A DNA stretch of 64,000 nt from Candidatus Woesearchaeota archaeon (GCA_023898345.1 CP060218.1:1087926-1151925), one strand, 5' to 3'. Shown: positions 8,282 to 54,763, counted from the first letter of the stretch. Translations and numbers: made by a program. Notes: generated by a model from the letters alone, not told the origin.

Positions 8282-8348
8282 ATAAAGAAATCGCTAAGAT
8301 ATGGCCATCCCAATCGGAGTAAAGCTTCGGGGTGGGCATGCTAAGGAA
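8282..8348 (+). repeat. Divergent copy of dispersed repeat family REP-A
   Basis: aataaagaaatcgctaagatatggccatcccaatcggagtaaagcttcggggtgggcatgctaaggaag aligns to the REP-A consensus. Confidence 0.6.
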
Positions 8349-8440
8349 GTACTTCTTTTTGTCTCCTCTCTCTCGCTCTTGCTTTCCTCAAAAGATAAAA
8401 TCCCCTAAACTCGCCAAATGTGAGGCTTTCTTGTTTTCGA

Positions 8441-9445
8441 CTATTTGACTGCGTACAAAGAAATTTTTCCTTTTTGGCGTTTTTGCAGAGCTGTGATGAG
8501 TCTTCCAAAATACCTTTTTTCATAGCAAATCACAGCAACCTTATCTTTGGTCTTTTCCATTTCTTCAAGGGTCCTTTGTGCAACATATTCTGTTCTGTCT
8601 TCAATGACTTTGTCGAGATGGGAACGCAAGGTATAGTAAAAATCTTTTCTTGGTAGATGAAAAAAATGCTGAAATTCTTCTTTGATTTCGCGGCAAAGTT
8701 CTTCGTCAGCGTTTCCGTCCAGAAAATCAAGATAAAAGGCATAGAATTTTTCCAGATTGATGCGGTTGTGTGAAAAATTACGGAAGAGAATACTGCTTGA
8801 TTTTTTTGTGTTGAGAATGTTTGTGTTTTGTGTTTTTGTTTCTTTGTTTCTTTTTTCTAAACACTCTTCTTTTACTTTGGTACAATATTCAAGACCAAAT
8901 TCACGCACAAAGAGATCTTCTTCGTAGAAGAGCTGAAAGAGAGTGAGTTTAATATGCTCTGAGTAAGAGGACAGGTGTGTTATTCCAAGGAGATTAAGAT
9001 TTTTGAACTGCGAGAGAAAATGGGCAAGTTTTGATTGATTTGTAAAGGAACGTGTATAATTTTCACCTCTTTCGTTGTCCATGCCAACAAAATGAATGTG
9101 ACAATCAAGAAGTAGAATTCTGAGTTGGTGCTTTATCTTTTTGAACTCTCCTGCTTTTAGAGGAAGTAAGATTATTGTTGGAGCGCCAAGTTCGTGTTGC
9201 TGTCTGGAAGGATGGTACTTTGGACTTGGCTGTAGGCTTGAAAGAGAAGAGAGTGTTGCAAAGAGTTTTTGCGTAGGATATGAAAAGGAAACCTTATTTC
9301 TGGTATGAGAAATCCTAACACTTTTTTGCGGAACTGCTTGGTGAAGGTGAACTGAAACAAAATGGATGAACTCTCGTAGCATCTTCATATGGAATTTTGG
9401 GAATTCTTTTAAATGTTTCTTCTTTGAGGTTATTGTGCACCGCAA
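8441..9445 (-). CDS. Hypothetical protein; possible metal-dependent hydrolase (LLLDCHIHFVG motif); start uncertain
   Basis: 334-aa ORF. The HxH-type motif is reminiscent of amidohydrolase/PHP folds but sits ~110 aa from the annotated N-terminus. Confidence 0.4.
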   Translation of the reverse strand: MRCTITSKKKHLKEFPKFHMKMLREFIHFVSVHLHQAVPQKSVRISHTRNKVSFSYPTQKLFATLSSLSSLQPSPKYHPSRQQHELGAPTIILLPLKAGEFKKIKHQLRILLLDCHIHFVGMDNERGENYTRSFTNQSKLAHFLSQFKNLNLLGITHLSSYSEHIKLTLFQLFYEEDLFVREFGLEYCTKVKEECLEKRNKETKTQNTNILNTKKSSSILFRNFSHNRINLEKFYAFYLDFLDGNADEELCREIKEEFQHFFHLPRKDFYYTLRSHLDKVIEDRTEYVAQRTLEEMEKTKDKVAVICYEKRYFGRLITALQKRQKGKISLYAVK

Positions 9446-9498
9446 AAGTACTTTCTAGGAGACCTGTCTAAAATTACTTTTTTGTGACAAAATACCTT

Positions 9499-9618
9499 AA
9501 GTAAAGAAATCGCTGAAATCTGCCTATCCCAATCGCAACAGAGCTGATGGGCATAATACCCAGCCAAGGAATCAAAAATTTGTTAGATGGAATTATTTTT
9601 GATGTGCAGCATATAAGA
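9499..9618 (+). repeat. REP-A short form plus 3' module (ggaattatttttgatgtgcagcatata), running directly into the Ham1 start codon
   Basis: gtaaagaaatcgctgaaatctgcctatcccaatcgcaacagagctgatgggcataatacccagccaaggaatcaaaaatttgttagatggaattatttttgatgtgcagcatataagaATG. Confidence 0.8.
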
Positions 9619-10179
9619 ATGAAAAAAACTCTGACTCTTGTAACAGGAAATGAAAATAAAAGAAGAGAATTTGAAATGCTTCTTTACAATTTCCAAGTTG
9701 AGATGAAAGCTTTGGATCTTGAAGAAGTACAAAGTTTAGACACTGAGTACATCGCCAAAGAAAAAGCAAAAAAAGCATATTCTCTTTTGCAAAAACCTGT
9801 CATTGTAGAAGATGTCAGTGCTCATCTTGATGCTCTAGAGGGCTTGCCTGGACCTTTTATCAAGTATTTTGAGAAAAAACTTGGCGATACTGCTCTTTTG
9901 AGACTTCTTGGCGAGGAGAAAAACCGGGCGGCTTTTATTCGTTGTACTTGTGTTTATTTTGATGGGGAATCACTGCTTGTTTCAGTTGCTGAAATGAAAG
10001 GACACATAAGTAGAGAAAAGAGAGGTGAAGATGGTTGGGGCTTTGATGTCTGTTTTATTCCTGAGGGACAGGAGAAAACTTTAGCGGAAATGGGCAGAGA
10101 AGAAAAAATTAACATTTTTCCGAGGTCTTTAGCACTACACCATCTTTCTGACCGATTAAAAAAGGAAGGTAAAAATTGA
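9619..10179 (+). CDS. Non-canonical purine NTP pyrophosphatase (Ham1/RdgB/ITPase family)
   Basis: Motifs LTLVTGNENKRREFE, VEDVSAHLDALEGLPGPFIKYF and GWGFDVCFIPEG. The true start is the internal ATG at 9619; the ORF-track 5' extension from 9547 is made of repeat-element sequence. Confidence 0.88.
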   Translation: MKKTLTLVTGNENKRREFEMLLYNFQVEMKALDLEEVQSLDTEYIAKEKAKKAYSLLQKPVIVEDVSAHLDALEGLPGPFIKYFEKKLGDTALLRLLGEEKNRAAFIRCTCVYFDGESLLVSVAEMKGHISREKRGEDGWGFDVCFIPEGQEKTLAEMGREEKINIFPRSLALHHLSDRLKKEGKN

Positions 10180-10183
10180 GGAT

Positions 10184-10597: not shown

Positions 10598-10599
10598 GC

Positions 10600-11031: not shown

Positions 11032-11043
11032 AGTTTGCTTTCT

Positions 11044-11583: not shown

Positions 11584-11873
11584 GTTTGAGACTCGTTCTT
11601 ATTTTACTTTTTTTCTTTTGTAGTCTTTGTAAGGTGAATAAAATGGCTCTCGAAGCTTATTTTAGGGATTGCCAGCACCCTTTTGCATCAAACTTCTCTT
11701 TCTGTTTTTGCTCAAATCTCAGAGACAGCTTTTTTTCTCTTCTTTAGTCAGCGCTTTTGCGATTTTTTTATAGGGCTACGAAAAACCAATATCATTTGTG
11801 AGATGAAAGCAAGGAGTCCTCACTCAAATTTGAGAGTTTTACCGACCTTATCTCTGAGAAGAACAAAAACCAA

Positions 11874-11955
11874 GTAAAGAAATCGCTAAAATGTGCCTAT
11901 CCCAATCGGAGCAGAGCTGCAGGGTATATATAATATCCAGCTAAGGAATCAAAAG
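11874..11955 (+). repeat. REP-A short form
   Basis: gtaaagaaatcgctaaaatgtgcctatcccaatcggagcagagctgcagggtatatataatatccagctaaggaatcaaaag. Confidence 0.85.
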
Positions 11956-12051
11956 TTTTGGTTTTTCCACCCTTCTCAATAATTACTTTAGCCTTTGCCA
12001 CAGTTTGAGAGCTTACTCAAATTTATAAATTGAAACTTAAGCAATTCTTTC

Positions 12052-14877: not shown

Positions 14878-15008
14878 TGTGAAATGTAAAACTTGCCAGC
14901 ATATAAATCTGTCGGAGCGTCTCTCTTGGTAAAAAACAAATCTTAAGAAATTACTCAAAATGTGTAAAGTTGTAGAGGAAGAGCCTTAAGACCCTTCCAG
15001 GATTACCA

Positions 15009-15085
15009 GTAAAGAAATCGCCAAAATGTGCCTATCCCAAACGGAGCAGAGCTGCGGGGTATAATACTCAGCTAAGGAACTGAAA
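15009..15085 (+). repeat. REP-A short form
   Basis: gtaaagaaatcgccaaaatgtgcctatcccaaacggagcagagctgcggggtataatactcagctaaggaactgaaaa. Confidence 0.85.
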
Positions 15086-17704: not shown

Positions 17705-20700
17705 ATGAGAAAAGAAACCTACTCTCAGATGCGAAAGAGCAAAGCTAGGAAAGTCCTCGCAAGAATTATTTTCCTCTTTTTTATTCTCTTTTACTCTAGT
17801 ACTCTTCTTTTCTCCTCTTCAAGTGTAAAGGCTACTAGTTACGATCCTCCTTGGTGGGACTACCATTACCTTTATCGGCAGGAAATTAATGTGAGTTGGC
17901 CAAGCTCTGGTATTACACAGTACACGGCAAATCTTATCCTTAATAGTAGCAATACGGGAGGAAACTTTAGTTTTACAAGTGATAGAACTTCATTGAGAAT
18001 TGTCTCTTATAATAGCAGTTCAAATAGTAGTACAGAAATCGGCCATTATTCTGCTGACTGGAGTGCTGCAAACCAAAATGCAACTGTACAAATTTTAATC
18101 CCTTACCTTGTTAATTCTGGTGCTTCACGAATTTTTCTTTACTATAAGTATCCTTCTGGAATAAGTTCTGAGACTTATTGTGCTCCATATATCTATTGTG
18201 ACCAATTTGAAGATGCAAGTATTAATGCTTCTCTTTCAAGTGTGGACAATGATGCAAATTCAGGAACTGCTTTCTCTGAAGGCTCTGGAGTTCTTAGTCT
18301 TACTGCGGGAGGATCAGATACTTGGACTGGAGCTGATGAATATAGTTCTGTCTTTTTGAATAACATTGCTGGAGATGTTGAGGTCCTTCTCACAGCAGTT
18401 AGTCAGACAAACTCTAACTCTTGGGCTAAGGCCGGAATTATGTTCAAAAATGACATGACAAGTGCAGGATCCTCTACAGGATATATTTTCAATGTGCGAA
18501 GGCCTGTTGATGGTTATGCTATGCAAACAGATGAAAATAATAATGGTTATCTTGAAACAAATAGTAATGGCGGCAATCCTTCTGCAAATCCTAGCTATCT
18601 GCGAGTTATTAAATCAGGAACTACGTTTAGAGGAGATTATTCAAAAACGGGATACTCGGGTTGGACTAATCTTGGTGGGACGAGAACAATTTCTTCTACA
18701 AATAGCATACAAGATATTGGTATTTCTTTGACTTCCCATGGAGGAGCTACGCTTTGTACTGCTACCTTTGATAACTTTATTGTAAAGCGTTATTCCACAT
18801 CCAGTCCGTCGGCTTATACTTATGGTACAGAGGAAAAACTTGAGGGCATCTACATTATTTTAGATTCTCCTCTTAATGGAACAAATTTCTCTTCTGCAAA
18901 TTTACCCATTAATGTGAGTTTAACTGAAACAGGGAATCTTAGTTATAGTATTGATGGTGGCTCTTTTATTACTGCTTGTACAAACTGTGACAATTATACT
19001 GCAACTCTTGTTTTTTCAAGTGGTGTGCATAACATAAGCTTTTATGCAATTGATGTTCTTAGTGGAAATAGTAGTTCTCAAACTAGTGAGTTCTTTGTCG
19101 ATGCAGAAAACCCCATTATAACTCTTATCTCTCCAAATACAAGTCAAAGTACTTCTGACCTTTCAGTTCAGTTCACGTTCCAAGTTAATGATTCTTCGGC
19201 AATTAATTCTTGTTCTTTGTACATTGAAAATATGCTTGTTGCTACAATGAATAGTCCTAGTAAAAATACAAATCTTAGTTTTGTGACTACAATGTGTTCA
19301 AAAACTTCAGATTGGTTTATCAGTTGCACGGATGCCTTTAATAAAACAACAAATAGTAGTACTTTGCAAATACTGTCAAAGTTCTTAGCTCCTTGGTGGA
19401 ATACAAGTTTCCTTTCTCGCAAAGAAATTATTCTTCATTCTGATCTTACGAGTTCTCTTTCAAATTATCCTGTTTATCTGGATATTGAAAAAACTGCTCA
19501 AATGCAAAGTGACTTTTCTGATCTGCGGTTTGTTCATTATGAAAATCAAACGAATACGACAACTCCTCTTTCTTATTTCATTATCTCAACAAATGCTTCT
19601 CATGCTAGGATTTGGGTAAATGTTACAACGATTACTAGTCAAAATGAAACGGTCCTCTATTTGTACTATGAAAATGATTCAACTGTTTCTCCTCTTAGTT
19701 CTGCTGCAAGTGTTTTCTTTTCAAATCAGATTTGGCTTAATTCTTTTAGCTGGCCTTATCCGAGTGTTGCGGATTATGCGTACTCACACCAAGACTTTGA
19801 AGATGCTCTTGCTTTGAATCCGAGTATTTTCGGAAATGGAACTGCTACACAAATTTATGAAACTTCAAATCCGTATGGTAGTGATGATATGTTCTTCTTG
19901 CAATATCGTCTTCTTTTCTTGGCAAATGAGAGCGGTACTACATACTTTGGAACGGACAGTGATGATGCTTCGGAAATTATTCTCAAGACTGATGATGACA
20001 GAAATTATAGTTCTACTATTGCAAGCTGGTATGGCGCTCATGGAACTGTCGGCAATTACAACACGTACAGTGGATCTTTTTCAACGAGTTCTGGAAATGG
20101 ATATTGGGTTGAGTATCGGATGCAGGAAAATGCTGGCGGACAAGCTGCGGATATGGGTGTTCGTTTGCCTTCTGCTGGAGCTTACAGTAGGGCAAGCACT
20201 ACGAATTTCCCGAATACCTTCTATTACAGGGAATATAGAGAAGGAAGTGAACCTCAGATGCTTTGTGTTGGTGATGAAGAAAGCCAAAATAACCCTCCAA
20301 CTCTTACTCTTTTGAGTCCTGTTAATGCTTCTAAGATTGTGCAAAATTCAACCGTTACTTTTTTGTGGAATATTAGTGATGAGAGTACAAATCTGACGTG
20401 TAAGTTTTTCTTGGATGGGATTTTGAACAGCAGCTTTAATTGTACATCAGGTAATAATTCCTTGTCTCTTGACTTAGATAGGGGTGTGCATAATTGGACT
20501 GTTGAAGCAAGTGATGAACAAAATGAATCTACAAATTCTTCAACATATTATTTTACATTAATTTATGATAGTGCTCTGCACTTTGAAAAGGAATTGAAAA
20601 ATATTAACACAAATCAATTTATTGTTACTTTTAACATTTCTAATCTTTTGAACAATATTTCAATGAATGCTAGTGTGCATGACTTTGTCGCTCTAAACTT

Positions 20701-22397: not shown

Positions 22398-25136
22398 CTA
22401 CTCATAACTAATGCCTTCTTCAAAAAGCTGGAAAACTTCGTCGCCGTTCAAGCTTGTATTCCACACACTGATTTCATCGAGAAGGCAATTCACTTCGTAG
22501 CTGGCTGTGGGGTGGCGGCCAAAGTAAAGCGAAGCTTCGGGGAGTGTATTTTCAGCGCCACTTTTGCTCCCGATAAAAGTGCCGTTAAGGTAGTATTGCA
22601 AACCGGAACTTGTGCTGACGAAGGTGACATGGTGCCAGGTGTTCAATGAGAGTTGGCCAAAGGCATCGTATTCGTATGTCCCGTTTCCAAGCAGCGCATC
22701 TATTGTTCTGTCGCCGGGCCAGTTCAAAACTGTTCCTTGGCCGAGGTATCCGACGTCGGAGTTTGTCACTAAGTATTTGTTGCCGCTGCCGCTGCGAAAG
22801 TTCACCCAAAAGGAAAGTGTTTTGATTGTTCCATTGATGGGAAGATCTAGATAGCTTGTGCCTGATGTTCCGGGGAGGTCAAAGGAGGAGCCGTCAATGC
22901 CCCAACTGTTATAGGTCACGGAGCTGCCTTTGCTGCCGTCATGGTGATAGGAGGAATTGTCGAGTACGGAATTTTCGCCTTTCCAATGACCGAGTAAACT
23001 TGCATTTGCTGGAAGGCCGGAGTTACTTGGTGGTGAGGTTGGTGTGTCAAAGTTTTCCATGCTTGCTGCATAGAGTTGGTAGATGCTGCTTTGGTTAAGG
23101 GAAACACCCCACACACTGATTTCATCGAGAAGGCAATTCACTTCGTAGCTGGGTGTTGGGTGTCTTCCAAGGTAAAGGGAGGCTTCGCTAAGGGAATTGA
23201 TGGCTCCGACTGTTAGGCCTTTGTACGCGCCGTTGAGATAGTACTCTTGGCCTGAGCCTGTGCTGACGAAGGTGACGTAGTACCAGGTGTTCAAAGAGAG
23301 GGTTCCGAAATCATTGAAGGCATATACTCCGTTTCCGAGAAGGGAGTCTATTGTTCTGTCGCCGGGCCAGTTCACAACGGTTCCTTGGCCGAGGTATCCG
23401 ACGTCGGAGTTTGTTACGAGGTATTTGTTGCCGGTGCCGCTGCGAAAGTTCACCCAAAAGGAAAGTGTTTTGATTGTTCCATTGATGGGAAGATCTAGAT
23501 AACTTGTACCTGATGTTCCGGGGAGGTCAAAGGCTGTTCCGAAGGGGCCGGAGGTGGTGTACGTCACGGCTGATCCGAGTGTGGCGCTTTTGTTGTTTGC
23601 TGAACTGTCGAGGGAAGTATTTTCGCCTTTCCAGTATCCGATTAAACCGTAGCTGTTGTTAAAGGGGGAAACTGGGGCAAGTTCTTCTTCGCTTACAAGG
23701 CTGTACTTTTGCGGACAGTCCAAAGCGTTACAGTCGCTTGCACTCACAACAACGAGCCACTGCCCGGACTCGATTTCGCTTGTATTCACGTACACTTGCT
23801 CGACGTTGTTGAGGTGATCGCTTTCGTTACGCCAAGCTTCTCGTGCGGGTGTGTTCGGGTCGAGTGTCCAGGGATAGAATGTTTGTCCGGATGGCGATAG
23901 GAGTTTGAGGTCAAGGTCGTTGATGAGGTTGGCTCCGGGAACGTCGTCCCAAGCTAGCGTTACTTTGAGTGAGCTTTGTGCGCTGATGTTGATTGCGTAC
24001 ACGTCCACGTCAGAGATGTCTGAAATGTTTGCTTCTAGGAATGTTCCGTTGATGATTCGGTCCACAGCTCCTTTGGCGTTGAGTAGTCCGTACCCGTTCA
24101 CGTAGTCGGGGCCGTCGATGATTTCACTCCCGTTGCCGCTACGGTGTAGGTCTGTCGTCGAATCTAGCAAAAGGGCTTTGATTGTCGATGGGAGCGGGTC
24201 TTCGTCGTAGCCGGACTTGTTCCACCGTTCGAGCATAAGCGCGATGGTTCCACTGACGTGTGGCGCTGACATGGAGGTTCCGCTAACAGTTGCATAATTA
24301 TTTGTTCCATTTGTAGTTGTGATTCCATTTCCAGGTGCAACTAAATCAGGTTTTATTCTTCCACCATTTGTTGGACCAAGTCCCGATGTAAAGCTAATAA
24401 CACCACTGTCGTAAACATTACCTACGGAAATGGTGTTTTTTGCAACTGCTTCTGGAGCAATAGTAAAATACCCCGTTGTTAGATTACAGTTTTGAGAATT
24501 ACCAACAGCCCAAACTATTGGAACTTTTCTAGTTGTATAATTTCCATAAACCAATTCATCTATTAATTGAGTAAAAGAATTATATTCTCCCAATACTTCA
24601 CATTGCTTATGTCCATAGGAATTTGAAATTACATTAATACTGTAATTATCAATTCCAGTTTTATAGTTAGATTCTAAGTCATAACTATATCCAAAAGGTA
24701 ATAAATCTTCTTGGTACCCATAAATTTTTGCTTCAGGAGCTACCCCAACATAACTTGAATTTAGATTTCCGTCCCCTATCATTATACCTGCAACCCTAGT
24801 TGCATGGTCTGATGTAGAAGGAGCCAAATTTAAGATTTGTAGTCTAGTTGCAAAATCTGTATGGTTACTCGCAACTTCTCTTTCATATTGTAAAATATTT
24901 ATATTGCTCCCCTGTAAATCATAAGGGTTTTCATAAAGAATAGGAATTTTACTAACATTTTTAGAACTATCTAAAAAATTTTTGCTATTCTGTAATTCAA
25001 CATCAATAAATAATATTTCGTCTGTATTGGATAAGATGAATAATGTTTCTTCATATGTGAGAGAATTTGAAAATGCATTAACTGAAAGTAATAATATCAT
25101 CAGTAATAAAAATTGACTATTTTTAAAATAACTCAT
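22398..25136 (-). CDS. Secreted S8 subtilisin-like serine protease with two C-terminal LamG/concanavalin-like lectin domains
   Basis: Signal peptide, catalytic His (HATRVAGIM) and Ser (GTSMSAPHVSGTIALM) motifs, then two ~190-aa tandem repeats (YLDLPINGTIKTLSFWVNFRSG...CLLDEISVW). The start overlaps the upstream gene by 4 nt. Confidence 0.9.
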   Translation of the reverse strand: MSYFKNSQFLLLMILLLSVNAFSNSLTYEETLFILSNTDEILFIDVELQNSKNFLDSSKNVSKIPILYENPYDLQGSNINILQYEREVASNHTDFATRLQILNLAPSTSDHATRVAGIMIGDGNLNSSYVGVAPEAKIYGYQEDLLPFGYSYDLESNYKTGIDNYSINVISNSYGHKQCEVLGEYNSFTQLIDELVYGNYTTRKVPIVWAVGNSQNCNLTTGYFTIAPEAVAKNTISVGNVYDSGVISFTSGLGPTNGGRIKPDLVAPGNGITTTNGTNNYATVSGTSMSAPHVSGTIALMLERWNKSGYDEDPLPSTIKALLLDSTTDLHRSGNGSEIIDGPDYVNGYGLLNAKGAVDRIINGTFLEANISDISDVDVYAINISAQSSLKVTLAWDDVPGANLINDLDLKLLSPSGQTFYPWTLDPNTPAREAWRNESDHLNNVEQVYVNTSEIESGQWLVVVSASDCNALDCPQKYSLVSEEELAPVSPFNNSYGLIGYWKGENTSLDSSANNKSATLGSAVTYTTSGPFGTAFDLPGTSGTSYLDLPINGTIKTLSFWVNFRSGTGNKYLVTNSDVGYLGQGTVVNWPGDRTIDSLLGNGVYAFNDFGTLSLNTWYYVTFVSTGSGQEYYLNGAYKGLTVGAINSLSEASLYLGRHPTPSYEVNCLLDEISVWGVSLNQSSIYQLYAASMENFDTPTSPPSNSGLPANASLLGHWKGENSVLDNSSYHHDGSKGSSVTYNSWGIDGSSFDLPGTSGTSYLDLPINGTIKTLSFWVNFRSGSGNKYLVTNSDVGYLGQGTVLNWPGDRTIDALLGNGTYEYDAFGQLSLNTWHHVTFVSTSSGLQYYLNGTFIGSKSGAENTLPEASLYFGRHPTASYEVNCLLDEISVWNTSLNGDEVFQLFEEGISYE

Positions 25137-25423: not shown

Positions 25424-26172
25424 TCTTCATCACCAACATAAACACGTACTGTCAAAGCATGAAGAGTTTGAAGCTGACTTACAACATTCAAACCTTTTTT
25501 CTCAAGTACTATTTGAGCATCATCAAGAGATACATCTTTGTGAATATGAACAGTCAGATACGCATAAGCTTCTTCATCAAGATAATCACTACTTAAGGTA
25601 TTTGCTTGGAGAACAGGGCCAAACTTTTGCTCAAGGCTAAAATCTAAAACTGAACGAATTTTTGTACTCCCTAAAAAAGAGTTTAGTTGCGGATTATAAT
25701 TGAGATTTGAAAAATTTGTTTGGTCTGATTCAAGTACGTACTGAGTCGAACTAGGACTTACGGCTACAAGGTAAGCATTTGCTCCTTGATATTCGAGAAC
25801 ATTTATTCCTTTCTCAAAGAGAACAGATATGTCCTCTTTTGATAAGGGTGTAAAAAATTGAAAGACTAAATAAGACTGAGAATTTGCATTCCTTAGTTTT
25901 TCTCTTAAATCATCATCAATGCCTTCAGTAGGAACGGTTTTGCTTGTTTTTAGAATATACTTTTCTAAAGCTTGCTTTTTGTCATATACTTTTATATTAC
26001 TTAAAGACGAGTTGCTTTCATTCAACTCCTTTACCTCCAAAGATGAATTTTCAGAACTGAGATTTTGAGCGTAAACTAATCCTACAAAGACTAACAAGAA
26101 CAAAAGAATTGTACCTGCGAACAGTTTTCGTATCATAGTTTTATAGACTTTTTTTTTGAAATATTTTTTCAT
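25420..26172 (-). CDS. Secreted hypothetical protein (N-terminal TM/signal); shares the conserved upstream leader block with the Cys-rich genes
   Basis: Start chosen at the internal ATG (MKKYFKKK...MIRKLFAGTILLFLLVFVGLVYA). The ORF-track N-terminal extension (FKTNHIKK) is translated promoter sequence shared with 26645..27082 and 27485..27871. Confidence 0.5.
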   Translation of the reverse strand: MKKYFKKKVYKTMIRKLFAGTILLFLLVFVGLVYAQNLSSENSSLEVKELNESNSSLSNIKVYDKKQALEKYILKTSKTVPTEGIDDDLREKLRNANSQSYLVFQFFTPLSKEDISVLFEKGINVLEYQGANAYLVAVSPSSTQYVLESDQTNFSNLNYNPQLNSFLGSTKIRSVLDFSLEQKFGPVLQANTLSSDYLDEEAYAYLTVHIHKDVSLDDAQIVLEKKGLNVVSQLQTLHALTVRVYVGDEE

Positions 26173-26289
26173 GCTTTTTACTCTCCAAATTCTTTTCTTT
26201 ATATGATTTGTCTTGAAAACTGAGGTTATGCTAAAAAGAATTACAAACAAAAATATTATTGCTTTCATTTTGCACGCACACATGAATTA

Positions 26290-26564
26290 TTTATTGAACA
26301 CTTATTATTGACACAATTTGAAATTCCACAAGTAACTATTTTGCAAATTCCTGTTTCTTCATAATTTGTTTGGTAAACATTGATTGGTTCACAAGTAGCA
26401 AATTGGAAACAATCACTATCTTGCTCACAATACTACTGTTTATCCATCATATCTTTCGGATGAGTTATCCAAGCAGGATGTACAATTACATATATTACCA
26501 ATGTCATAAGCAAAATACTTCCAACTATGAAGCCGATTTTTTTTGAATTTATCTTAACCATTTT
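26290..26564 (-). pseudogene. Paralog of the Cys-rich protein family interrupted by an in-frame TAG (3-nt insertion)
   Basis: Manual translation gives MVKINSKKIGFIVGSILLMTLVIYVIVHPAWITHPKDMMDKQ*YCEQDSDCFQFATCEP...CVNNKCSINNSCVRAK. Versus 25133..25423 the only disruption is an inserted tag codon (cagTAGtattgt vs cagtattgt). Confidence 0.55.
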
Positions 26565-26644
26565 TTTGAATATTTTTTTTGAAATTCTTTTCTTTATATG
26601 AAAACAAAGAAAGAGAGAAAAAGTAAGGTTTTTTTCTATTCATT

Positions 26645-26959
26645 TTAACTTTCCCCTCCTGCCTGTAAGAGGACAGCACATTTATTGTCAGACCCACAGG
26701 AAATTACTATCCCCGAATTGCTACACTCCGTAGTATTCCAGTTATTAGAAAAATATTTATTGCCTAAAGAACAATTTGTAGAGATACAATCATCCCCTTT
26801 TTCGCAGTACAAAGGGTCGTTCAAATACCTCACATCAATGCCCATGTAATACGCTTTGATATTATTCTGATACATAAAACCAAGGGCAATAAGGCACAGC
26901 ACAATAACTATGCTCCCAACAAAAATCTTTTGTTTCTCACCTATGTTTATCTTAACCAT
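26645..26959 (-). CDS. Small Cys-rich membrane-anchored/secreted protein (Cys1)
   Basis: Start at internal ATG (MVKINIGEKQKIFVGSIVIVLCLIALGF...). Shares the DVRYLNDPLYCE..DC motif with the paralogs. 9 Cys. Confidence 0.6.
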   Translation of the reverse strand: MVKINIGEKQKIFVGSIVIVLCLIALGFMYQNNIKAYYMGIDVRYLNDPLYCEKGDDCISTNCSLGNKYFSNNWNTTECSNSGIVISCGSDNKCAVLLQAGGES

Positions 26960-27074
26960 TTTTTTGAATATTCTTTTTGAATTTTTTTTCTTTATATGAT
27001 TTGTCTTGAAAATTTTCACCTTTTTTTGTTTTTTCAAAGCGTAGTTTTTTCTGTATGAAATATCTCTACAATTC

Positions 27075-27262
27075 GCTCCCATTCACGTACACTTGCTCGA
27101 CGTTGTTGAGGTGATCGCTTTCGTTACGCCAAGCTTCTCGTGCGGGTGTGTTCGGGTCGAGTGTCCAGGGATAGAATGTTTGTCCGGAGGGTGAGAGGAG
27201 TTTGAGATCTAAGTCGTTGATGAGGTTGGCTCCGGGAACGTCGTCCCAAGCTAGCGTTACTA
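27075..27262 (-). pseudogene. ~190-bp internal fragment of the subtilase gene (copy of ~23774..23960, about 93-95% identity)
   Basis: Encodes LAWDDVPGANLINDLDLKLLSPSGQTFYPWTLDPNTPAREAWRNESDHLNNVEQVYVN, identical to subtilase residues ~390-450. No start and no catalytic residues. Confidence 0.8.
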
Positions 27263-27484: not shown

Positions 27485-27811
27485 TCATTTTTGATATTTT
27501 TCCTCCCAACAAACTGGACTATTATTTGCTACACATTTATTGTTAGAACAAGATTTATCACAAACCTCAAGTTGACATTGTGAATCACCTTGCGTATTGA
27601 AACGATTGATAACAGTGCAGCGTTCTATAACACAATCTTCTTTGCTTTCGCAATAATAGGGGTCCAGTAAATATCTTACATCTACACCTTTATACTCTGC
27701 TTCGATATGATGTCTGAAACTAAATATGCCAACTAGCAGTAATAAAAATAAACTTACTAGACAAAATATTACTTTTTTCTCCTTCAATTTTTTTGAATTT
27801 ATCTTAACCAT
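27485..27811 (-). CDS. Small Cys-rich membrane-anchored/secreted protein (Cys2)
   Basis: Start at internal ATG (MVKINSKKLKEKKVIFCLVSLFLLLLVGIF...). Contains the DVRYLLDPYYCESKEDC motif and 11 Cys. A TATA-like tcatataaag lies ~30 nt upstream, conserved across the family. Confidence 0.6.
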   Translation of the reverse strand: MVKINSKKLKEKKVIFCLVSLFLLLLVGIFSFRHHIEAEYKGVDVRYLLDPYYCESKEDCVIERCTVINRFNTQGDSQCQLEVCDKSCSNNKCVANNSPVCWEEKYQK

Positions 27812-27924
27812 TTTTTTGAATATTTTTTTTGAAATTTCTTTCTTTATATGATTTGTCTTGAAAATTTGCAAAACATTTTTTTTTTCAAAGCGTAGTTTTT
27901 TCTGTATGAAATATCTCTACAAAT

Positions 27925-28125
27925 TGCTCCCATTCACGTACACTTGCTCGACGTTGTTGAGGTGATCGCTTTCGTTACGCCAAGCTTCTCGTGCGGGTGT
28001 GTTCGGGTCGAGTGTCCAGGGATAAAATGTTTGTCCTGTGGGCGAGAGAAGTTTGAGGTCAAGGTCGTTGATGAGGTTGGCTCCGGGAACGTCATCCCAA
28101 GCTAGTGTTACTTTGAGCGAGCTTT
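27925..28125 (-). pseudogene. Second ~200-bp internal fragment of the subtilase gene (copy of ~23774..23985)
   Basis: Same boundaries at the 5' side as fragment 27075..27262 (both begin ...ctcccattcacgtacacttgctcgacg). Lies upstream of Cys2. Confidence 0.8.
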
Positions 28126-28479: not shown

Positions 28480-28551
28480 GCACCTGTAGCTCAGTGGTAG
28501 AGCGCTTGCCTCGTAAGCAAGAGGTCGGGGGTTCAAATCCCCCCAGGCGCT
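28480..28551 (+). tRNA. tRNA-Thr (anticodon CGU)
   Basis: Manual cloverleaf: acceptor GCACCTG/CAGGCGC (one A:C mismatch at 3:70), D-arm GCTCAGTGGTAGAGC, anticodon stem CTTGC/GCAAG with loop CT-CGT-AA, T-arm GGGGGTTCAAATCCCCC, discriminator T, no encoded CCA. Followed by a T-rich tract. Confidence 0.85.
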
Positions 28552-37824: not shown

Positions 37825-37894
37825 TTCCTTAGCTTGGTATATACCCCGTAGCTCTACTCATATCAGGATAGGCACAATTTAGCGATTTCTTTAC
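37825..37894 (-). repeat. REP-A short form (inverted orientation), ~47 nt upstream of the pilin-like gene start
   Basis: The reverse complement reads gtaaagaaatcgctaaattgtgcctatcctgatatgagtagagctacggggtatataccaagctaaggaa. Confidence 0.8.
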
Positions 37895-38157
37895 TTTCTT
37901 TCTTAAAAAAACTCAGGATTCCCTAAGCTTACCAAAGGATATGTCGGAACCAAAACCGCTGCCAGCATAAAGAATATCACCATTTGAATCAATATCTATC
38001 CCACCTACCCCCGAAGAATTTGTTAGAAAAACAGTCTTATTCCAAATTTGATTTCCATATACATCGTATTTAAAAATCGTCCCTAGCCAATTAACCGCTC
38101 CACCAATATACAAGTAATTATTATGGTATTTAACTCTAAAAAAGGTTGAATTCATTG

Positions 38158-39110
38158 GTGTGCTAAGACATAATTGATGAACGCTTAAAGTTTTGGATGT
38201 ATCTTTCAGCTGGAACTTTATAGTAAATCCCTTGATGAATTCGTTTCTCGTTATAAAAGGCAATGAATTCATCGAGAGTATTAAACCTTTCGTCGAATTC
38301 TAATTTGTAGGTTCCAAACCATCTTTCTACCTTCCCATTTGTTTGTGGGTGATTCACCCTGCCCAGAATGTGCTTAATGCTATTCTGGTTACAAAATCGA
38401 GTAAAATTATGTTTTGGATCACCTCGATTCTGAGTATTTGTGAAATGAGTTCCATTGTCTGTAAGTATCTCTTTGGGCTTGCCAGATTTGGCAATCGCAT
38501 TCTGGAATGCCAGAATAGTGTTTTCGGTTGTTGCATTTTCGAAGTATTCTGCATGAATAAGAAAACGAGAATAATCATCTAGAAACGCAATGATCTGTTT
38601 ACCTGTAAATGGGCATTGTGACCAGTCTGTGTGCCATAATTCGTCTTTAGAGCTACGCTCATATCTGACGAACTTTATTTGCTCAGGACGAGTTCTCTTG
38701 TTTAATTGGAGACTGTTCTTTTTCAGAACTTTCTGTATTTGGCGTTCGGAAACTCCAAACCCTTCTTCATCAAGAAGAAGCTTGATTCTTTGTGACCCCA
38801 TTTTGTATTGCTTCCAGATTTTGACAACTAAGTCTTGGAAGCTTTGATTTATTTCTTTTTCTTTTGGACCTCGTTTCTGAGGCTCAACAAAAGTCGCACC
38901 ACGTCTCTTGTATGCTTCAAACCAAGAGCTAAGAGTAGATTTTGGAACTTCTCTGGTCTTTGAGAGATAAGAAAGAGAATACCAACCTCCTTCAAGAGTT
39001 TTCACACAACGAAGTTTGAACGTTTGATTGTATGTTTTTTGTTTCATTTCTCAAAATAACGAGAAATTCATCAAAAAAGGAGGCGTTCAATAATTATGTC
39101 TTAGCACACT
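38158..39110 (-). mobile_element. IS481-family insertion sequence (~953 bp) with 24-bp terminal inverted repeats
   Basis: Left end tgtgctaagacataattgatgaac matches the reverse complement of the right end gttcaataattatgtcttagcaca (1 mismatch). Flanking near-duplicate ttgaattc(a/g)ttgg (putative target-site duplication). Single DDE transposase ORF inside. Confidence 0.85.
38163..39047 (-). CDS. DDE transposase, integrase-core (rve) domain, IS481 family
   Basis: N-terminal HTH, then catalytic D (HTDWS), D (LTDNG) and E (TNGKVER) with typical spacing. The ORF ends 5 nt from the IS terminus. Confidence 0.85.
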   Translation of the reverse strand: MKQKTYNQTFKLRCVKTLEGGWYSLSYLSKTREVPKSTLSSWFEAYKRRGATFVEPQKRGPKEKEINQSFQDLVVKIWKQYKMGSQRIKLLLDEEGFGVSERQIQKVLKKNSLQLNKRTRPEQIKFVRYERSSKDELWHTDWSQCPFTGKQIIAFLDDYSRFLIHAEYFENATTENTILAFQNAIAKSGKPKEILTDNGTHFTNTQNRGDPKHNFTRFCNQNSIKHILGRVNHPQTNGKVERWFGTYKLEFDERFNTLDEFIAFYNEKRIHQGIYYKVPAERYIQNFKRSSIMS

Positions 39111-41736: not shown

Positions 41737-41832
41737 TAATGGTTAAATAATTTGAAAGATGATAACAACAAGTCCTCAAATTTGAGATTTTTCCAACCTG
41801 ATCTTTTGAGAAGATTAAATAAACCAAATAAA

Positions 41833-41975
41833 GTAGAGAAATCGCTAAGATTTTCCTATCTCAATCAGAGCAGAACTCAGGACATTACTGCAATTTTCAA
41901 GACACGAGTTCTAACTCTCAGCGAGATGGTCGCACAGTGCTGCGGAACATAATGGCCAGCTAGGGAATTAAAAAT
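41833..41975 (+). repeat. REP-A long form (divergent)
   Basis: gtagagaaatcgctaagattttcctatctcaatcagagcagaactcaggacattactgcaattttcaagacacgagttctaactctcagcgagatggtcgcacagtgctgcggaacataatggccagctagggaa. Confidence 0.75.
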
Positions 41976-43140: not shown

Positions 43141-44589
43141 TTACCTTTGTGCGTACTTGAGGACAAGATAAGGATAAATCCCTCCAACGTCCATGTACCC
43201 TGCGACATAGATATTGCCTGAGCTGTCAAGTTCTATTCCTGTCATCCATTCATCATTTCCACTATCATAGGTTACATTCCAAATTTCATTTCCATTTGTA
43301 TCATATTTCACAAGTAGAGTGATAGCAGTAGTTGAGGCCCCAACGACATATACATTCCCCAAATTATCAATTACAATCTCATTTCCCCATTCACCATTTC
43401 CTGAGTCATAAGTTACATTCCAAATTTCATTTCCGCTAGAGTCATATTTGAATGTTATGAAGTCATCATTTGCTCCATTATTTGTCCCTCCCGTTATATA
43501 CACATTTCCTAAGCTATCAACAGTAACTCTGTTTCCCCATTCACTATTTCCTGAGTCATAAGTTACATTCCAAATCTCGTTTCCGCTAGAGTCATATTTG
43601 AATGTTATGGCGTCATAATTTGCTCCATTATTTGTCCCCCCCGTTATATACACATTTCCTAAGCTATCAACAGTAACTCCATTCCCATACTCATCACTTC
43701 CACCGTCATACGTCACATTCCAAATCTCGTTTCCGCTAGAGTCATATTTGAATGTTATGAAGTCATCATTTGCTCCATTACTTGAATATCCACTTACGTA
43801 GATATCTCCCTTTGGACTAAGTGCAATTGAGGAGGTATCATCATAATTTCCTCCATCATACGTCACATTCCAAATCTCGTTTCCGCTAGAGTCATATTTG
43901 AATGTTATGAAGTCATCATTTGCTCCATTATTTGAATATCCACTTACGTAGATATCTCCCTTTGGACTAAGTGCAATTGAGGAGATATCATCATAATTTC
44001 CTCCATCATACGTCACATTCCAGAGTTGCTCCATGTTGTTATCATATTTAGCTACGAGAAAATCAGAGTCTCCATTATCAATCCCTCCCGCTAAGTATAT
44101 ATTTCCTTCTGAATCAAGTGCTAGATCATAAAACCAAACATTATTGCTCAGATCTGGCGATTTGTTCCACAACAGTACGGGCATAAGTTCGTGGCTTTGG
44201 TATTGTTCTTTTACAAAGAACTTCTTGCTATAAATTCCTTTATCTGTAAATACTGCTACTTCAACAGAGTTGCCACTTGCATTAAGACAAGAACCCAAAT
44301 CAAATATGTGTAACCCTGAAAAAATACCTGTTGAAAACTCGCAGTCAGTTCCTGAGGCTTTCACATTAGAGACTGCTGTTCCTGTTCCTGCTTGAAAAAA
44401 GAGCTCGTCGCCAACGAGATCGACAATCCCCACACTTTGGCCGCTTGCTGTGTCGGACTCGGCTTTTGCGAAAAGAGCAGATCGAAAGGAATCAAACCAG
44501 CTACTGAAAAAAATGACTGCGACAACAGCAACGACAAGAAGTAGGGCAACGGCAATGACGGGAGAAATAGCTTTTTTTGGCGAGCGCAT
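43141..44589 (-). CDS. Pilin-like adhesin: class III signal peptide plus about 8 SBBP beta-propeller repeats
   Basis: MRSPKKAISPVIAVALLLVVAVVAVIFF, then ~41-aa repeats (YDSSGNEIWNVTYDGGN.DD.SSIALSPKGDIYVSGYS.NGANDDFITFK). Four units are near-identical at the nucleotide level. Confidence 0.75.
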   Translation of the reverse strand: MRSPKKAISPVIAVALLLVVAVVAVIFFSSWFDSFRSALFAKAESDTASGQSVGIVDLVGDELFFQAGTGTAVSNVKASGTDCEFSTGIFSGLHIFDLGSCLNASGNSVEVAVFTDKGIYSKKFFVKEQYQSHELMPVLLWNKSPDLSNNVWFYDLALDSEGNIYLAGGIDNGDSDFLVAKYDNNMEQLWNVTYDGGNYDDISSIALSPKGDIYVSGYSNNGANDDFITFKYDSSGNEIWNVTYDGGNYDDTSSIALSPKGDIYVSGYSSNGANDDFITFKYDSSGNEIWNVTYDGGSDEYGNGVTVDSLGNVYITGGTNNGANYDAITFKYDSSGNEIWNVTYDSGNSEWGNRVTVDSLGNVYITGGTNNGANDDFITFKYDSSGNEIWNVTYDSGNGEWGNEIVIDNLGNVYVVGASTTAITLLVKYDTNGNEIWNVTYDSGNDEWMTGIELDSSGNIYVAGYMDVGGIYPYLVLKYAQR

Positions 44590-44745: not shown

Positions 44746-44890
44746 ATAAAGAAATCGCTAAAATGTGCCTATCCCAATCGGAGCAGAGCTCCGGGGCATT
44801 ATGGCAATTTTCAAGACGCGATTTCTTTACTCCCAGTTGGGTGGTCGCAGCAGAGCTGCGGGGTATAAATACCCAGCTAAGGAATTAACT
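44746..44890 (+). repeat. REP-A long form (reference copy): 5' module, internal perfect hairpin ccggagcagagctccgg, inverted copy of the 5' module, then tail
   Basis: ataaagaaatcgctaaaatgtgcctatcccaatcggagcagagctccggggcattatggcaattttcaagacgcgatttctttactcccagttgggtggtcgcagcagagctgcggggtataaatacccagctaaggaa. gtaaagaaatcgc and gcgatttctttac form a 13-bp inverted repeat. Confidence 0.85.
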
Positions 44891-45713: not shown

Positions 45714-45901
45714 TCTCGCCTCTGGCATTTTCAAAAATATTTTCTTTTTTAGTTTTAAGTAAATGGTGTTCTCGAAGTAAAAAACTTCTGCGACTATACA
45801 TAAAATTTAGAGATTTTTACTTCGTTACAAGATCTTGTGCATTCTAAAAGTAATTTCTGGGAGACCTGTTTAAAATTACTTTTTCGTAACAAAATGCCTT
45901 A

Positions 45902-46086
45902 GTAAAGAAATCGCTAAAATGTGCCTATCCCAATCGGAGTAGAGCTCCGGAGCATTACGACAATTTTCAGGACACGAGTTCTAACTTCCAACTTGTGGTG
46001 GTCGTAGCAAAGCTGCGGAGTATAATACCCAGCTAAGGAATCAAAAATTTGTTTGCTGGAATTATTTTTGATGTGCTGTATATCAA
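45902..46086 (+). repeat. REP-A long form plus 3' module
   Basis: gtaaagaaatcgctaaaatgtgcctatcccaatcggagtagagctccggagcattacgacaattttcaggacacgagttctaacttccaacttgtggtggtcgtagcaaagctgcggagtataatacccagctaaggaatcaaaaatttgtttgctggaattatttttgatgtgctgtatatc. Confidence 0.85.
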
Positions 46087-46180
46087 GAAAACACTACCTG
46101 TCCCTCCCTCTGTTAACATCTCTTTGACAATGAAGAGAAACCTATTCTCTGAAGAAAAAAATATATTCTTCTTTTCACTA

Positions 46181-51454: not shown

Positions 51455-51547
51455 GGGTTTTTTATTAAAAAGCACTATATAAATTCTTTTCACTCGAAAA
51501 TTGACCAATTTGGTGAAACCTAGCACTCGATTGCACAAAACAAAGAG

Positions 51548-51574
51548 TCAGAATTATTTTTGATGTGCGGTATA
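51548..51574 (+). repeat. Isolated REP-A 3' module (cagaattatttttgatgtgcggtataa) upstream of the 51615 gene
   Basis: Matches the 3' extension seen at 9590..9615 and 46058..46086. A TATA-like acatatatataaag follows at 51581..51594. Confidence 0.6.
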
Positions 51575-51614
51575 ACAGCGACATATATATAAAGCGTTGA
51601 GTTTCTTTTTTTCT

Positions 51615-52160: not shown

Positions 52161-52230
52161 ATTTGTTGCTGGTCTCTGTCTTAGAGAAGATGTTCGCTTT
52201 GCATTTTACTGAGAATTTTGAAAAACCTCT

Positions 52231-52821: not shown

Positions 52822-52854
52822 ACATTTATAAATGCCTTCTTTCTTTTAAAAATT

Positions 52855-53106: not shown

Positions 53107-53141
53107 ACATATAAAAATTAAGAGGGAATTCATAAGTAAAA

Positions 53142-54002
53142 ATGGAAGAAATTATTGAAATGGAAGTTGATTTGGACCATAGGGAACAGCTTCGCAGGCT
53201 CCACACAGCAACACATATTCTTAATCATGTTGCTCACAAGGTCTTAGGAAATCATGTTTGGCAAAACGGCTCTAACCTTAAACCTGAACTTGGCTCTTTG
53301 GACCTTACCCATTATGAGATTCCTAGTAAGGCACAGCTTGATGAAATTGAGAGACAAATTAATGAGGTTATTTTTGCTGATAGGACTGTGAGTGTTGAAG
53401 AAGTCGATAGGGATGAAGCTGAAAAGAAATATGGATTTTCTTTGTACCAAGGTGGTGCTATTCCGATGAAATCTATTCGTGTTGTTCACATTGACGAGAG
53501 TGACATTGAAGCTTGTGGTGGAACGCATATGCAAAGGACGGGAGGCATTGGTTTCTTTACTATTGTGGATGTTCAGAAGATTCAGGATGGAGTTGTTCGT
53601 TTTTTGTACAAGGTCCATTTGCACGCGTTGTCTTATGTGCAAGAAAGAGAAAATCTTCTTTTGGCTGCTTCGGAAAATCTTGGAGTTCCATCTGTACAGT
53701 TGGCGCAGGCTTCAGAGAAATTCTTTAAGGAGTGGAAGGAACAGAGAAAAGAGATTGAACGCTTGCAGGGGAAGGTAAAGGTTTTACTCCTGGAGCAGCT
53801 TTCAGTTTCTAAAAAAAATGAATTGAAACTTGAAGAGACAGATATGGCGTTGTTACAAGAGATTTTTGCGGCAGCCCTTGCAAAGTATTCAAGTTTTAAG
53901 CTTTCTTCTCCTCTTGCAATTTTGGCGACAAAGGATAGGGAAGATATTGGCAAGTACAAGAAAAAAATTGATAGGGGGAGCTTTATGCTTTATCTCCTAT
54001 GA
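53142..54002 (+). CDS. alaX: Alanyl-tRNA editing protein AlaX (AlaRS second additional / editing domain)
   Basis: HxxxH motif RLHTATHILNHVAH and CGGTH motif EACGGTHMQRTGGIG, characteristic of AlaX/AlaRS editing domains. 286 aa. Confidence 0.8.
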   Translation: MEEIIEMEVDLDHREQLRRLHTATHILNHVAHKVLGNHVWQNGSNLKPELGSLDLTHYEIPSKAQLDEIERQINEVIFADRTVSVEEVDRDEAEKKYGFSLYQGGAIPMKSIRVVHIDESDIEACGGTHMQRTGGIGFFTIVDVQKIQDGVVRFLYKVHLHALSYVQERENLLLAASENLGVPSVQLAQASEKFFKEWKEQRKEIERLQGKVKVLLLEQLSVSKKNELKLEETDMALLQEIFAAALAKYSSFKLSSPLAILATKDREDIGKYKKKIDRGSFMLYLL

Positions 54003-54169
54003 AGGTATTAAGTCGAAAAGGAGATCTTGAAATTAGCTATGTTGTTAAATTGCTTTTAGCAATTATTGCACTTATTGTTCTTATCGTTGTTATTACGATT
54101 GTTATTAAAGGAGAATTCGATAATCAAGGTGGCATTATTGAAAACATTTTTTCTTCTATTGGGAAGTAA
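53999..54169 (+). CDS. Candidate 56-aa membrane microprotein overlapping the alaX stop (ATGA)
   Basis: Manual translation MKVLSRKGDLEISYVVKLLLAIIALIVLIVVITIVIKGEFDNQGGIIENIFSSIGK. Below the 60-aa ORF-track cutoff. Coordinates ±1. Confidence 0.4.
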   Translation: MKVLSRKGDLEISYVVKLLLAIIALIVLIVVITIVIKGEFDNQGGIIENIFSSIGK

Positions 54170-54240
54170 TTCCTTAGCTGGGTATTATACCCCGGAGCTC
54201 TGCTCCGATTGGGATAGGCACATTTTAGCGATTTCTTTAC
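54170..54240 (-). repeat. REP-A short form, inverted orientation
   Basis: ttccttagctgggtattataccccggagctctgctccgattgggataggcacattttagcgatttctttac is the reverse complement of the consensus. Confidence 0.85.
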
Positions 54241-54358
54241 TTTTTTTATAGTCGTCCACAAAACCCATTCCTTTTGTCTCCTCTCCACACCTCCTGTTCG
54301 TTTGCTTTATAGTGTTCTCAAAGTTAAAAACTTCTGCGGAGCACTATAGATTTCTCTT

Positions 54359-54739
54359 GTGAGAAAGTTTAAAAGGAAGGAATTTTTTTCACTCTTATTT
54401 ATGTCACTGACAGCTAAAATTTTGTCCTTTCCAGTGAATTGCAGCAGTGTTCCCCCAAGAGATATTGTTGACAGAACTTTGAGAAATAGGACCTTTTACA
54501 AAGCTGAAGAACTTGATGCACCTACTGAGTTTGGAATTACATATGGAGAATGGAAAAAAAGAGTTGCTCTTGCTTACCTTAGTTGGGAATTCGAGATCCC
54601 AAGCGACCTTCTTTTTCTGCTTGCCATGAGAGAAGACTTAGAGAGGGGCTTTCTTACAGAAGTGGAAAGAAGACATGGTCGAAGGCAGAGAAAATTTTAT
54701 GAGGCCATCTTTACAGACATTCATTCTTCAAGATATTGA
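54359..54739 (+). CDS. Hypothetical protein
   Basis: 126-aa ORF flanked on both sides by REP-A copies (54170..54240 inverted, 54745..54763 partial direct). Confidence 0.4.
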   Translation: MRKFKRKEFFSLLFMSLTAKILSFPVNCSSVPPRDIVDRTLRNRTFYKAEELDAPTEFGITYGEWKKRVALAYLSWEFEIPSDLLFLLAMREDLERGFLTEVERRHGRRQRKFYEAIFTDIHSSRY

Positions 54740-54744
54740 CAAAA

Positions 54745-54763
54745 AGTAAAGAAATCGCTAAAA
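54745..54763 (+). repeat. REP-A 5' module fragment (gtaaagaaatcgctaaaag)
   Basis: 19-nt match to the conserved 5' end of the family. Confidence 0.5.

Follow-up and report, generated by a model that had tools for sequence, protein, structure and literature searches.

The question raised by the stretch of DNA analyzed here, 64,000 nucleotides from Candidatus Woesearchaeota archaeon (GCA_023898345.1 CP060218.1:1087926-1151925; hereafter the window), is what kind of element REP-A is, a short structured repeat dispersed between the genes of this region. An earlier note on this DNA had compared REP-A with a mobile element like a miniature inverted-repeat transposable element (MITE), with a family of small structured RNAs, and with a portable regulatory module. 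Our analysis favors a mobile element, and REP-A is probably the local subfamily of a wider family of mobile DNA elements in Woesearchaeota that are non-autonomous and non-coding and that resemble the palindrome-associated transposable elements (PATEs) of the IS200/IS605 type or repetitive extragenic palindromes (REPs). Neither terminal inverted repeats (TIRs) nor target duplications were found, which sets it apart from a classical MITE. Its host belongs to the Woesearchaeota (DPANN archaea): GatB is 100% identical to an NCBI protein labeled 'Candidatus Woesearchaeota archaeon', and the close GatB homologues all belong to Woesearchaeota or Nanoarchaeota. Contig JACJVU010000001.1 of the metagenome-assembled genome (MAG) GCA_020637525.1 matches the window at ~99.8% identity, and the organism is present in many activated-sludge runs (for example SRR15882951, SRR14234111-3, and SRR17907852).

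REP-A is a real repeat family, far above chance. With a profile made from six copies, nhmmer recovered nine copies in the window (E 7e-25 to 5e-9), the 32-nt core of the earlier consensus gave two matches at ≤3 mismatches against 0.00 expected in shuffles, and the family was also recovered by a repeat finder (families D4, D6, and D13). Three of the nine copies have a long form of ~136-142 nt and six a short form of ~70-76 nt. The best preserved long copy, on the + strand at 44746..44886 (nhmmer 1.6e-47), consists of domain 1, GTAAAGAAATCGC...CCCAAT-CGGAGC-AGA-GCTCCG-GGGGCAT...GCGATTTCTTTAC, and domain 2, AGTTGGGTGG-TCGCAGC-AGA-GCTGCGG-GGTATAAAT-ACCCAGCT. The other two long copies, both on the + strand, are a partly decayed one between convergent genes (45901..46042; nhmmer 1.9e-45) and the most decayed one (41832..41969; nhmmer 7.7e-41), in which several pairs are broken. 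The short copies are found at 54170..54241 (- strand; nhmmer 7.2e-25; fold z -1.6), antisense between two + strand genes; at 15008..15080 (+ strand; 1.6e-23; z +0.7), in a divergent intergenic region 103 nt upstream of a CapK-like gene; at 11873..11949 (+ strand; 8.1e-23), in a composite block with a flank module termed Y; at 9500..9572 (+ strand; 2.1e-21), 52 nt upstream of Ham1; at 37825..37895 (- strand; 1.4e-20; z +1.2), 47 nt upstream of a NosD-like gene; and at 8282..8349 (+ strand; 2.2e-15), where a degenerate copy lacking ATAATACCCA lies antisense between two - strand genes and is in an identical state in strains L001 and L002. Of the 11 copies or fragments counted earlier, nine are thus copies. 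A tenth is a 5'-end fragment of 19-23 nt (54741..54763, + strand; nhmmer E 0.04; 23/23 identical in self-BLAST), which is an exact inverted copy of 54223-54245, at the 5' end of copy 54170, with a 112-aa gene between the two. The remaining one (51548..51576, + strand; AGAATTATTTTTGATGTGCGGTATA) has no nhmmer (E≤10) or covariance-model match and represents a flank module, Z, only. The small hairpin cggag-cagag-ctccg, believed earlier to be conserved in all copies, is intact in just three to four of them: it is perfect in 54170 and in domain 1 of 44746 and 45901, whereas 8282 and 15008 show one mismatch or a wobble, and in 9500, 11873, 37825, and 41832 it is disrupted.

The relation between the two forms had been overlooked by the earlier note. 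Comparison of the copies indicates that the long form of ~140 nt is the complete element, and that the ~72-nt forms are deletions between its two boxes. In terms of the hidden Markov model, the long form comprises positions 1-56, a spacer of ~45 nt, and then positions 34-72. It therefore holds a 22-23-nt direct repeat, TCGGAGCAGAGCTCCGGGGCAT and TCGCAGCAGAGCTGCGGGGTAT, 67 nt apart, which is likewise doubled in the sister subfamilies described below, and a near-invariant box (CCCAAT/GGGT, CGSAGC-AGA-GCTSCG, GGGGYAT) is present in both hairpin domains. The long form folds as two tandem hairpin domains, with the best folds seen in copy 44746 (-54.2 kcal/mol, z -4.9) and in a copy from locus L007 (-54 kcal/mol and z -4 to -5 for the two), and these folds are equally good on the reverse strand (z -5.3 for 44746). 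The diverged long copies 45901 (z -1.2) and 41832 (z -0.6) have lost base pairs without compensating changes, and the short copies show no structure (z -1.6 to +1.2). The latter are chimeric, with a 5' part from domain 1 and a 3' part from domain 2. In 15008 the crossover lies in the loop (CGGAGC..GCTGCG), leaving a G.G mismatch, and 11873 also switches domain within the loop with a resulting mismatch, while 54170 keeps the hairpin through its 3' arm (CGGAGC..GCTCCG) before switching to GGGGTAT. Since the crossover points differ, the direct repeats must have given rise to independent deletions at least twice. The two forms are also directly linked by the short copy 9500 and the long copy 45901, which have common outer flanks of 88-91% identity. 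Across subfamilies the complete element measures ~113-142 nt and contains no conserved open reading frame (ORF); the ATG-initiated frame of the REP-A subfamily (S1) is missing from subfamily S2.

How far the family extends was addressed with its 5' module and with the domain-2 hairpin. In the species-representative genome set the 5' module was confined to two small contigs, which carry long forms and are mis-binned in an activated-sludge MAG, and it gave no match in the JGI metagenomes or IMG/VR; the hairpin pattern had 0 matches in IMG/VR. REP-A is absent from ~55 kb of three Woesearchaeota with GatB 72-75% identical, and the related Woesearchaeota loci L021-L025 and L052 are without the element. 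Locus L021 carries an unrelated repeat of its own (3211-3451 and 18007-18138), resembling duplicated tRNA-gene fragments with their flanks. A scan of metagenomes for the domain-2 hairpin gave 20 loci, 12 of them contigs of one metagenome (3300025308), and 18 of the 20 showed the same two-hairpin plan and boxes as REP-A with different arms. Subfamily S2 (AAGTAAAAATCCCAATCGCAGCAAGCTGCGGGGCATTC...GGGATTTTTACTCTTAAAAATGGGTCGCAGCAGAGCTGCGGGGTATTAAACCCATTTTTTTTGAATAA) is near-identical on the 12 contigs of that one metagenome, S3-S5 are variants of S2, and S6 has long, GC-richer arms with a compensated CACAGC/GCTGTG apical stem. The S2 host genome is likewise a member of the Woesearchaeota and has one intact and one decayed copy within 22 kb. 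In all hairpin loci with elements, the two domains occur together and in fixed order and orientation. As a side observation, the same 24-nt core hairpin, GGGTCGCAGCAAAGCTGCGGGGTAT, is present in JGI contigs of 51-54% GC (L034 48-72 and L036 1041-1065), there enclosed by another palindrome, whose outer stem is 13 bp long, and unaccompanied by domain 1; it may be a distant relative from another organism or a coincidence.

A covariance model trained on S2-S5 only identified S6 (57.6 bits, E 6e-12) as well as the REP-A long copies (52.8, 51.8, 42.6, and 32.4 bits; E 1e-10 to 1e-5), including 44746 with 52.8 bits (E 1e-10) and 45901 with 32.4 bits. The subfamilies are therefore homologous, with the core box common to all and basal stems that are unrelated in sequence. 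In a same-strand alignment, 91.5% of cells paired, compared with 83.3±0.9 in shuffled and 36-53% in slid controls, and changes on both sides were found at 13 of 35 pairs, compared with 6.6±1.7 in shuffles (0/500 reached 13) and 1-6 in slid controls. The basal helix of domain 2 is 99% paired with six of ten pairs covarying, and cognate arms pair with each other whereas non-cognate arms fail to do so. Covariation, which the earlier note had suggested looking for in the hairpin, is thus present between subfamilies, while the copies of the window decay uncompensated.

Compensatory changes that preserve a two-hairpin structure, together with a core box invariant across divergent Woesearchaeota, would also be expected of structured RNAs with a function in cis or in trans, for instance in mRNA stability or processing or as an omega-RNA-like scaffold for a TnpB-type nuclease. 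On the given strand G.T wobbles outnumber A.C mismatches by 25 to 7, the GC content of REP-A is 48-52% in a host genome of 36%, and PATEs have been reported often to encode omega-RNAs (PMC10055086). However, 11 of the 25 wobbles come from one invariant T.G position, both strands fold equally well, and most copies in the window (six short and two decayed long ones) are unfolded. Neither a conserved promoter inside the element nor one at a fixed distance upstream was found, the orientation to neighboring genes is random in the sister family, and Rfam searches of nine loci with intact elements gave no element match at E≤10 or E≤5. A role as structured RNA, as considered earlier, is weakened by these observations and is in our view rather unlikely.

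Known non-coding RNAs and arrays were excluded as well, in agreement with the earlier statement that REP-A does not look like CRISPR, a tRNA, or a recognizable ribozyme core; Rfam, ARAGORN, and the gene calls gave no match of this kind. Rfam 15, whose models also cover IS605-associated RNAs, returned tRNA-Thr only at the gathering threshold, and the empty Rfam searches for the element rule out a known RNA, ribozyme, or CRISPR repeat. An origin from a tRNA or of the short interspersed nuclear element (SINE) type was ruled out, as ARAGORN found tRNA-Thr at 28480 alone. A CRISPR mini-array was rejected because just two repeats are present and the 'spacer' does not vary within a subfamily and pairs with the outer arms; no cas domains were found in the window gene calls. 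An integron attC array was rejected on account of housekeeping genes on both strands, near-identical copies, and no integrase. Distant-mode BLASTN of plasmid and phage collections gave no match. No paper or database entry on REP-A was found, and a full-text search for the core sequence returned 0 papers, so that the family does appear to be undescribed, as the earlier note had supposed.

All nine copies are intergenic according to the gene calls of the window. Four are located in divergent regions (9500, 11873, 15008, and 44746), four between same-strand genes (37825 and 41832 sense; 8282 and 54170 antisense), and 45901 alone between a convergent pair. Six copies, not the seven noted earlier, are upstream of and sense to a gene, 47-207 nt from the ATG, which together with the TATAAT(A) within REP-A could speak for a portable promoter or regulatory DNA module serving the downstream gene. 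This placement is uninformative, though, because in the divergent regions, which account for four of the six, any orientation is sense to one neighbor, and the tandem cases are split 2:2. In the sister family, where the neighbors are ordinary housekeeping genes, the downstream gene is sense at nine loci and antisense at seven. TATA-like hexamers in the window cluster 27-31 nt before start codons (11 of 38 genes at -29 and 10 of 38 at -28), a spacing typical of archaeal leaderless mRNAs, from which it follows that most transcripts of this Woesearchaeota lineage should be leaderless. Five of the six downstream genes (Na+/H+ exchanger, CapK-like, NosD-like, epimerase, and Band_7) have their TATA-like box outside REP-A, that of the NosD-like gene, TTTTATAAG, falling between copy 37825 and the ATG, and Ham1 has a weaker TATA-like TTATTTTT alone, likewise outside. 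REP-A is thus not the core promoter of these genes, and an archaeal promoter reading was dropped. A bacterial one was dropped too, as a scan for sigma-70-type sites within REP-A was empty and the host is archaeal; archaeal promoter rules hold, which makes the sigma-70 question moot. Nor is the TATAAT(A) stretch kept between subfamilies, where TATTAA, TATCAA, or TATTCG takes its place. The regulatory module proposed earlier is accordingly highly improbable.

The ends of the element are sharp and show conserved terminal oligonucleotides. The left end reads AAGTRAA, with the boundary (A)AG|TAAA in 22 of 24 copies, AAG belonging either to the target or to the element, and the flanks turn unrelated immediately beyond (A)AGTAAA. 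The right end is GAAT in S1-S5 (GAAG in one copy) and may be CAAT in S6, from which one full copy is available. In the S1 and S2 master sequences, the 25 nt at the left end and the reverse-complemented 25 nt at the right end agree at just 4-8 positions, and TIRs are thus lacking. Permutation likewise gave no sign of target duplication, with a best flank repeat of 3.45 nt against a null of 3.83±0.29 for S1 (11 copies) and of 4.75 nt against 4.43±0.27 for S2 (12 copies).

Such ends bear on the possibility that REP-A is a classical TIR-MITE, or a MITE-like pair of palindromes, moved by a DDE transposase. The only insertion sequence (IS) of the window, ~950 bp long (38158-39109), encodes a 294-aa rve-family (DDE) transposase (38163-39047, - strand) and lies 260 nt from copy 37825. 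Single REP-A domains do resemble small inverted-repeat units, the arms of domain 1 being perfect over 11-15 bp in some subfamilies, and a MITE census reports a Woesearchaea genome at 105 MITEs per Mb (PMC11602168), so that repeat-rich Woesearchaeota are already on record. On the other hand, the whole element has neither the IS-related TIRs nor the target-site duplication by which TIR-MITEs are defined, and its domains are never found apart. The 38-nt inverted repeats of the IS (38158-38195 and 39072-39109, with a solitary copy at 55534-55571; GTGTGCTAAGAC...) are also unrelated to the ends of REP-A. We therefore regard a TIR-MITE as quite improbable.

Several copies are embedded in larger repeated blocks. 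Module X (9444-9499, similar to 45846-45900; 9444-9545 and 45846-45946 in self-BLAST) and module Z (9573-9619, similar to 46043-46089 and 51548-51576; 9553-9619 and 46022-46089 in self-BLAST) enclose the copies 9500 and 45901, and GGAATTATTTTTGATGTGC is common to 51548 and the 3' flanks of these two copies. Module Y (11823-11872, similar to 41775-41831) is located directly 5' of copies 11873 and 41832. Within module Y, the sequence CTCAAATTTGAG forms a perfect palindrome; it is seen again at about 12010-12030, close to the TATA box of the Na+/H+ exchanger gene, and may represent an operator or one more nested element. A second repeat family dispersed between genes, REP-B (ATAGTGCTCCGCAGAAGTTTTTAMCTTYGAGAACACTAT...GGAGAGGAGACAAAARGAA), was observed at 54245-54355 (-), 59675-59790 (+), and 45745-45800 (-), and also at 8347-8374 (+) and 55564-55602 (+). 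Its 3' part is also found alone and inverted, and it directly adjoins REP-A copies 8282 and 54170.

One difference between strains involves REP-A. Strain L002, whose flanks are ~99% identical, is without a 165-nt block, consisting of 41 nt, REP-A copy 11873, and 48 nt, that is present in L001 and the window, and microhomology (TTTG / GTTTGAGAG) is seen at the junctions. As the outer block around 11873 recurs around copy 41832, the polymorphic unit is composite and made of nested repeats. The insertion polymorphism proposed as a check in the earlier note thus exists for one block, though for a composite one and not for REP-A by itself. In the same region, ~110 nt beside copy 11873 (11717-11829, compared with L001 6525-6647) are just ~75% identical between strains that otherwise share 99.2-99.8% identity, and this intergenic DNA is a recombination or replacement hot spot.

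Larger duplicated blocks (X-REP-A-Z and Y-REP-A, two sites each), a composite strain polymorphism with microhomology at its junctions, and hypervariable adjoining sequence would fit inert, non-mobile intergenic duplications that arose through homologous recombination or gene conversion and are now decaying. Against this, seven of the 11 S1 copies have nothing in common past their sharp ends, and the twelve near-identical S2 copies have flanks unrelated to each other. Passive copying also leaves unexplained why the box and the structure persist with covariation across lineages. Inert duplication is for these reasons a very doubtful explanation. A mobile element of the PATE or REP type is further supported by the nine copies in 64 kb and the two on small contigs elsewhere. 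Short-read contigs were also seen to start or stop within copies: Logan contigs L017, L019, and L020 terminate within 54170, and L004-L006 begin at window position 15024, within 15008.

Short structured repeats of this size are known from bacteria. The Correia elements of Neisseria, the pneumococcal BOX elements, and ERIC are, like REP-A, ~100-150 nt long, structured, and intergenic or promoter-proximal, and they occur in long and internally deleted forms. Unlike REP-A, Correia and ERIC have terminal inverted repeats, and Correia also has TA target duplications; all three are bacterial and without sequence similarity to REP-A. A closer resemblance is seen with REP-A's archaeal counterparts, the PATEs of Haloquadratum walsbyi and other haloarchaea, which derive from IS200/IS605 transposons (Dyall-Smith et al. 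2011, PMC3119063). These are non-coding, measure tens to hundreds of nt, have no inverted terminal repeats or target duplication, and carry similar near-terminal palindromes and conserved terminal oligonucleotides; one of them, HqIRS46, carries its palindromes as a 22-bp direct repeat and also exists as a 52-bp 'terminal-only' form that arose through repeat-mediated loss of the core (PMC3119063). REP-A is likewise non-coding, multi-copy, and at 72-142 nt too short for a transposase. Its palindromes are located near both ends, alike and in direct orientation, with neither TIRs nor target duplication, and its terminal oligonucleotides are conserved. Homogeneous, recent copies occur beside decayed ones, nesting with other small repeats is seen, and the change from the long to the short form matches the core deletion of HqIRS46. 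REP-A differs in its host, a DPANN archaeon whose genome is small, in that no IS605-type parent with matching ends was found, in that its palindromes sit in longer, lineage-specific, covarying stems, and in that a core of 19-24 nt is kept across divergent lineages.

REP-A also shares with the bacterial REP/REPIN-RAYT systems (PMC3116915; PMC6006769) its short, hairpin-forming intergenic repeats in high copy number with no transposase inside, as well as lineage-specific families with a conserved recognition motif and apparent long persistence. REPs are however single palindromes of 20-40 nt, often arranged as inverted doublets, whereas REP-A consists of two different hairpins in direct tandem. 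A survey of Y1 proteins placed the RAYT subclasses in bacteria only and the IS200-type subclass 1.1 as the only one in archaea, and no single-copy RAYT (Y1 HUH) gene flanked by the repeats was found in any sampled locus, the sample being much smaller than a whole genome.

By analogy with these systems, REP-A would be mobilized by a trans-acting enzyme that recognizes the hairpins folded on one of the two DNA strands and cleaves the element at its conserved terminal oligonucleotides, most likely an HUH/Y1 transposase of the IS200/IS605 (TnpA) or RAYT type. Propagation would then be limited to elements with intact hairpins and boxes, and such selection among elements for transposability would explain both the covarying stems and boxes conserved between lineages and the free decay of resident copies. 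The intergenic build-up, often just upstream of promoters, may reflect that insertions are tolerated there.

Some of our results weigh against this mobile-element interpretation. No transposase for REP-A was found; the rve IS has unrelated ends, and Pfam searches with ten unannotated ORFs of the window matched only the rve IS, beta-propeller, or T2SS-like families. A phmmer search of six-frame ORFs from ~300 kb gave no Y1 transposase, and nothing better than E=2, with IS200 and IS608 TnpA sequences as queries. No autonomous IS200/IS605 parent (tnpA and/or tnpB) with REP-A-like ends was detected on searching the window with ±10 kb on its sides and ~200 kb from related loci, and none of the hairpin loci has a gene between its two domains. 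A 1059-aa protein of equal length in the REP-A and sister genomes turned out to be unrelated. Furthermore, the sole presence/absence difference concerns the composite block of strain L002 instead of a clean REP-A insertion and could be explained by recombination, long covarying basal stems around the palindromes are no described feature of IS200/IS605 ends, the alignment used to count covariation was fitted to the covariance model, and the share of the host genome covered is 64 kb (±10 kb).

The covarying stems would also be explained if REP-A were more than IS debris and part of a long-lived, Woesearchaeota-specific system in which the hairpin box is read by a dedicated single-copy enzyme or ribonucleoprotein. 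This could be a REPIN-RAYT counterpart in archaea, or a TnpB-type nuclease acting in trans with REP-A as its guide-RNA scaffold; the system would be vertically inherited, co-evolve with its host, and be the first of its kind in DPANN. We consider this unlikely, and continue to favor a PATE-like or REP-like mobile element.

Two other repeats of the window were noted. Repeats of 237-316 nt with 80-95% identity are located at 23728-23964, 26946-27261, and 27798-28112 (and 26166-26635), in a 26-28 kb stretch of small ORFs by the tRNA-Thr gene (28480-28551); one overlaps the 5' part of an S8-peptidase gene, and they may be a duplicated gene start or the remnant of an integrated element. Six 150-nt tandem repeats within a 482-aa gene (43198-44049) are SBBP beta-propeller repeats.

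DPANN archaea have small, streamlined genomes, and their mobile DNA is little known. In the window, one structured repeat per ~7 kb would mean that ~1.4% of the sequence consists of one selfish family, which breaks short-read assemblies and, being located beside promoters, could alter regulation. REP-A probably joins the known PATE/REP-like non-autonomous hairpin elements and is no new category, being unusual in its covarying nested stems and its core shared across lineages. It provides a clean second example of repeat-mediated core deletion in palindrome-ended elements, and its invariant hairpin box, as a search pattern and a covariance model, offers a handle for finding the mobilizing enzyme, for tracing Woesearchaeota lineages, and for testing HUH-type transposition in DPANN archaea.

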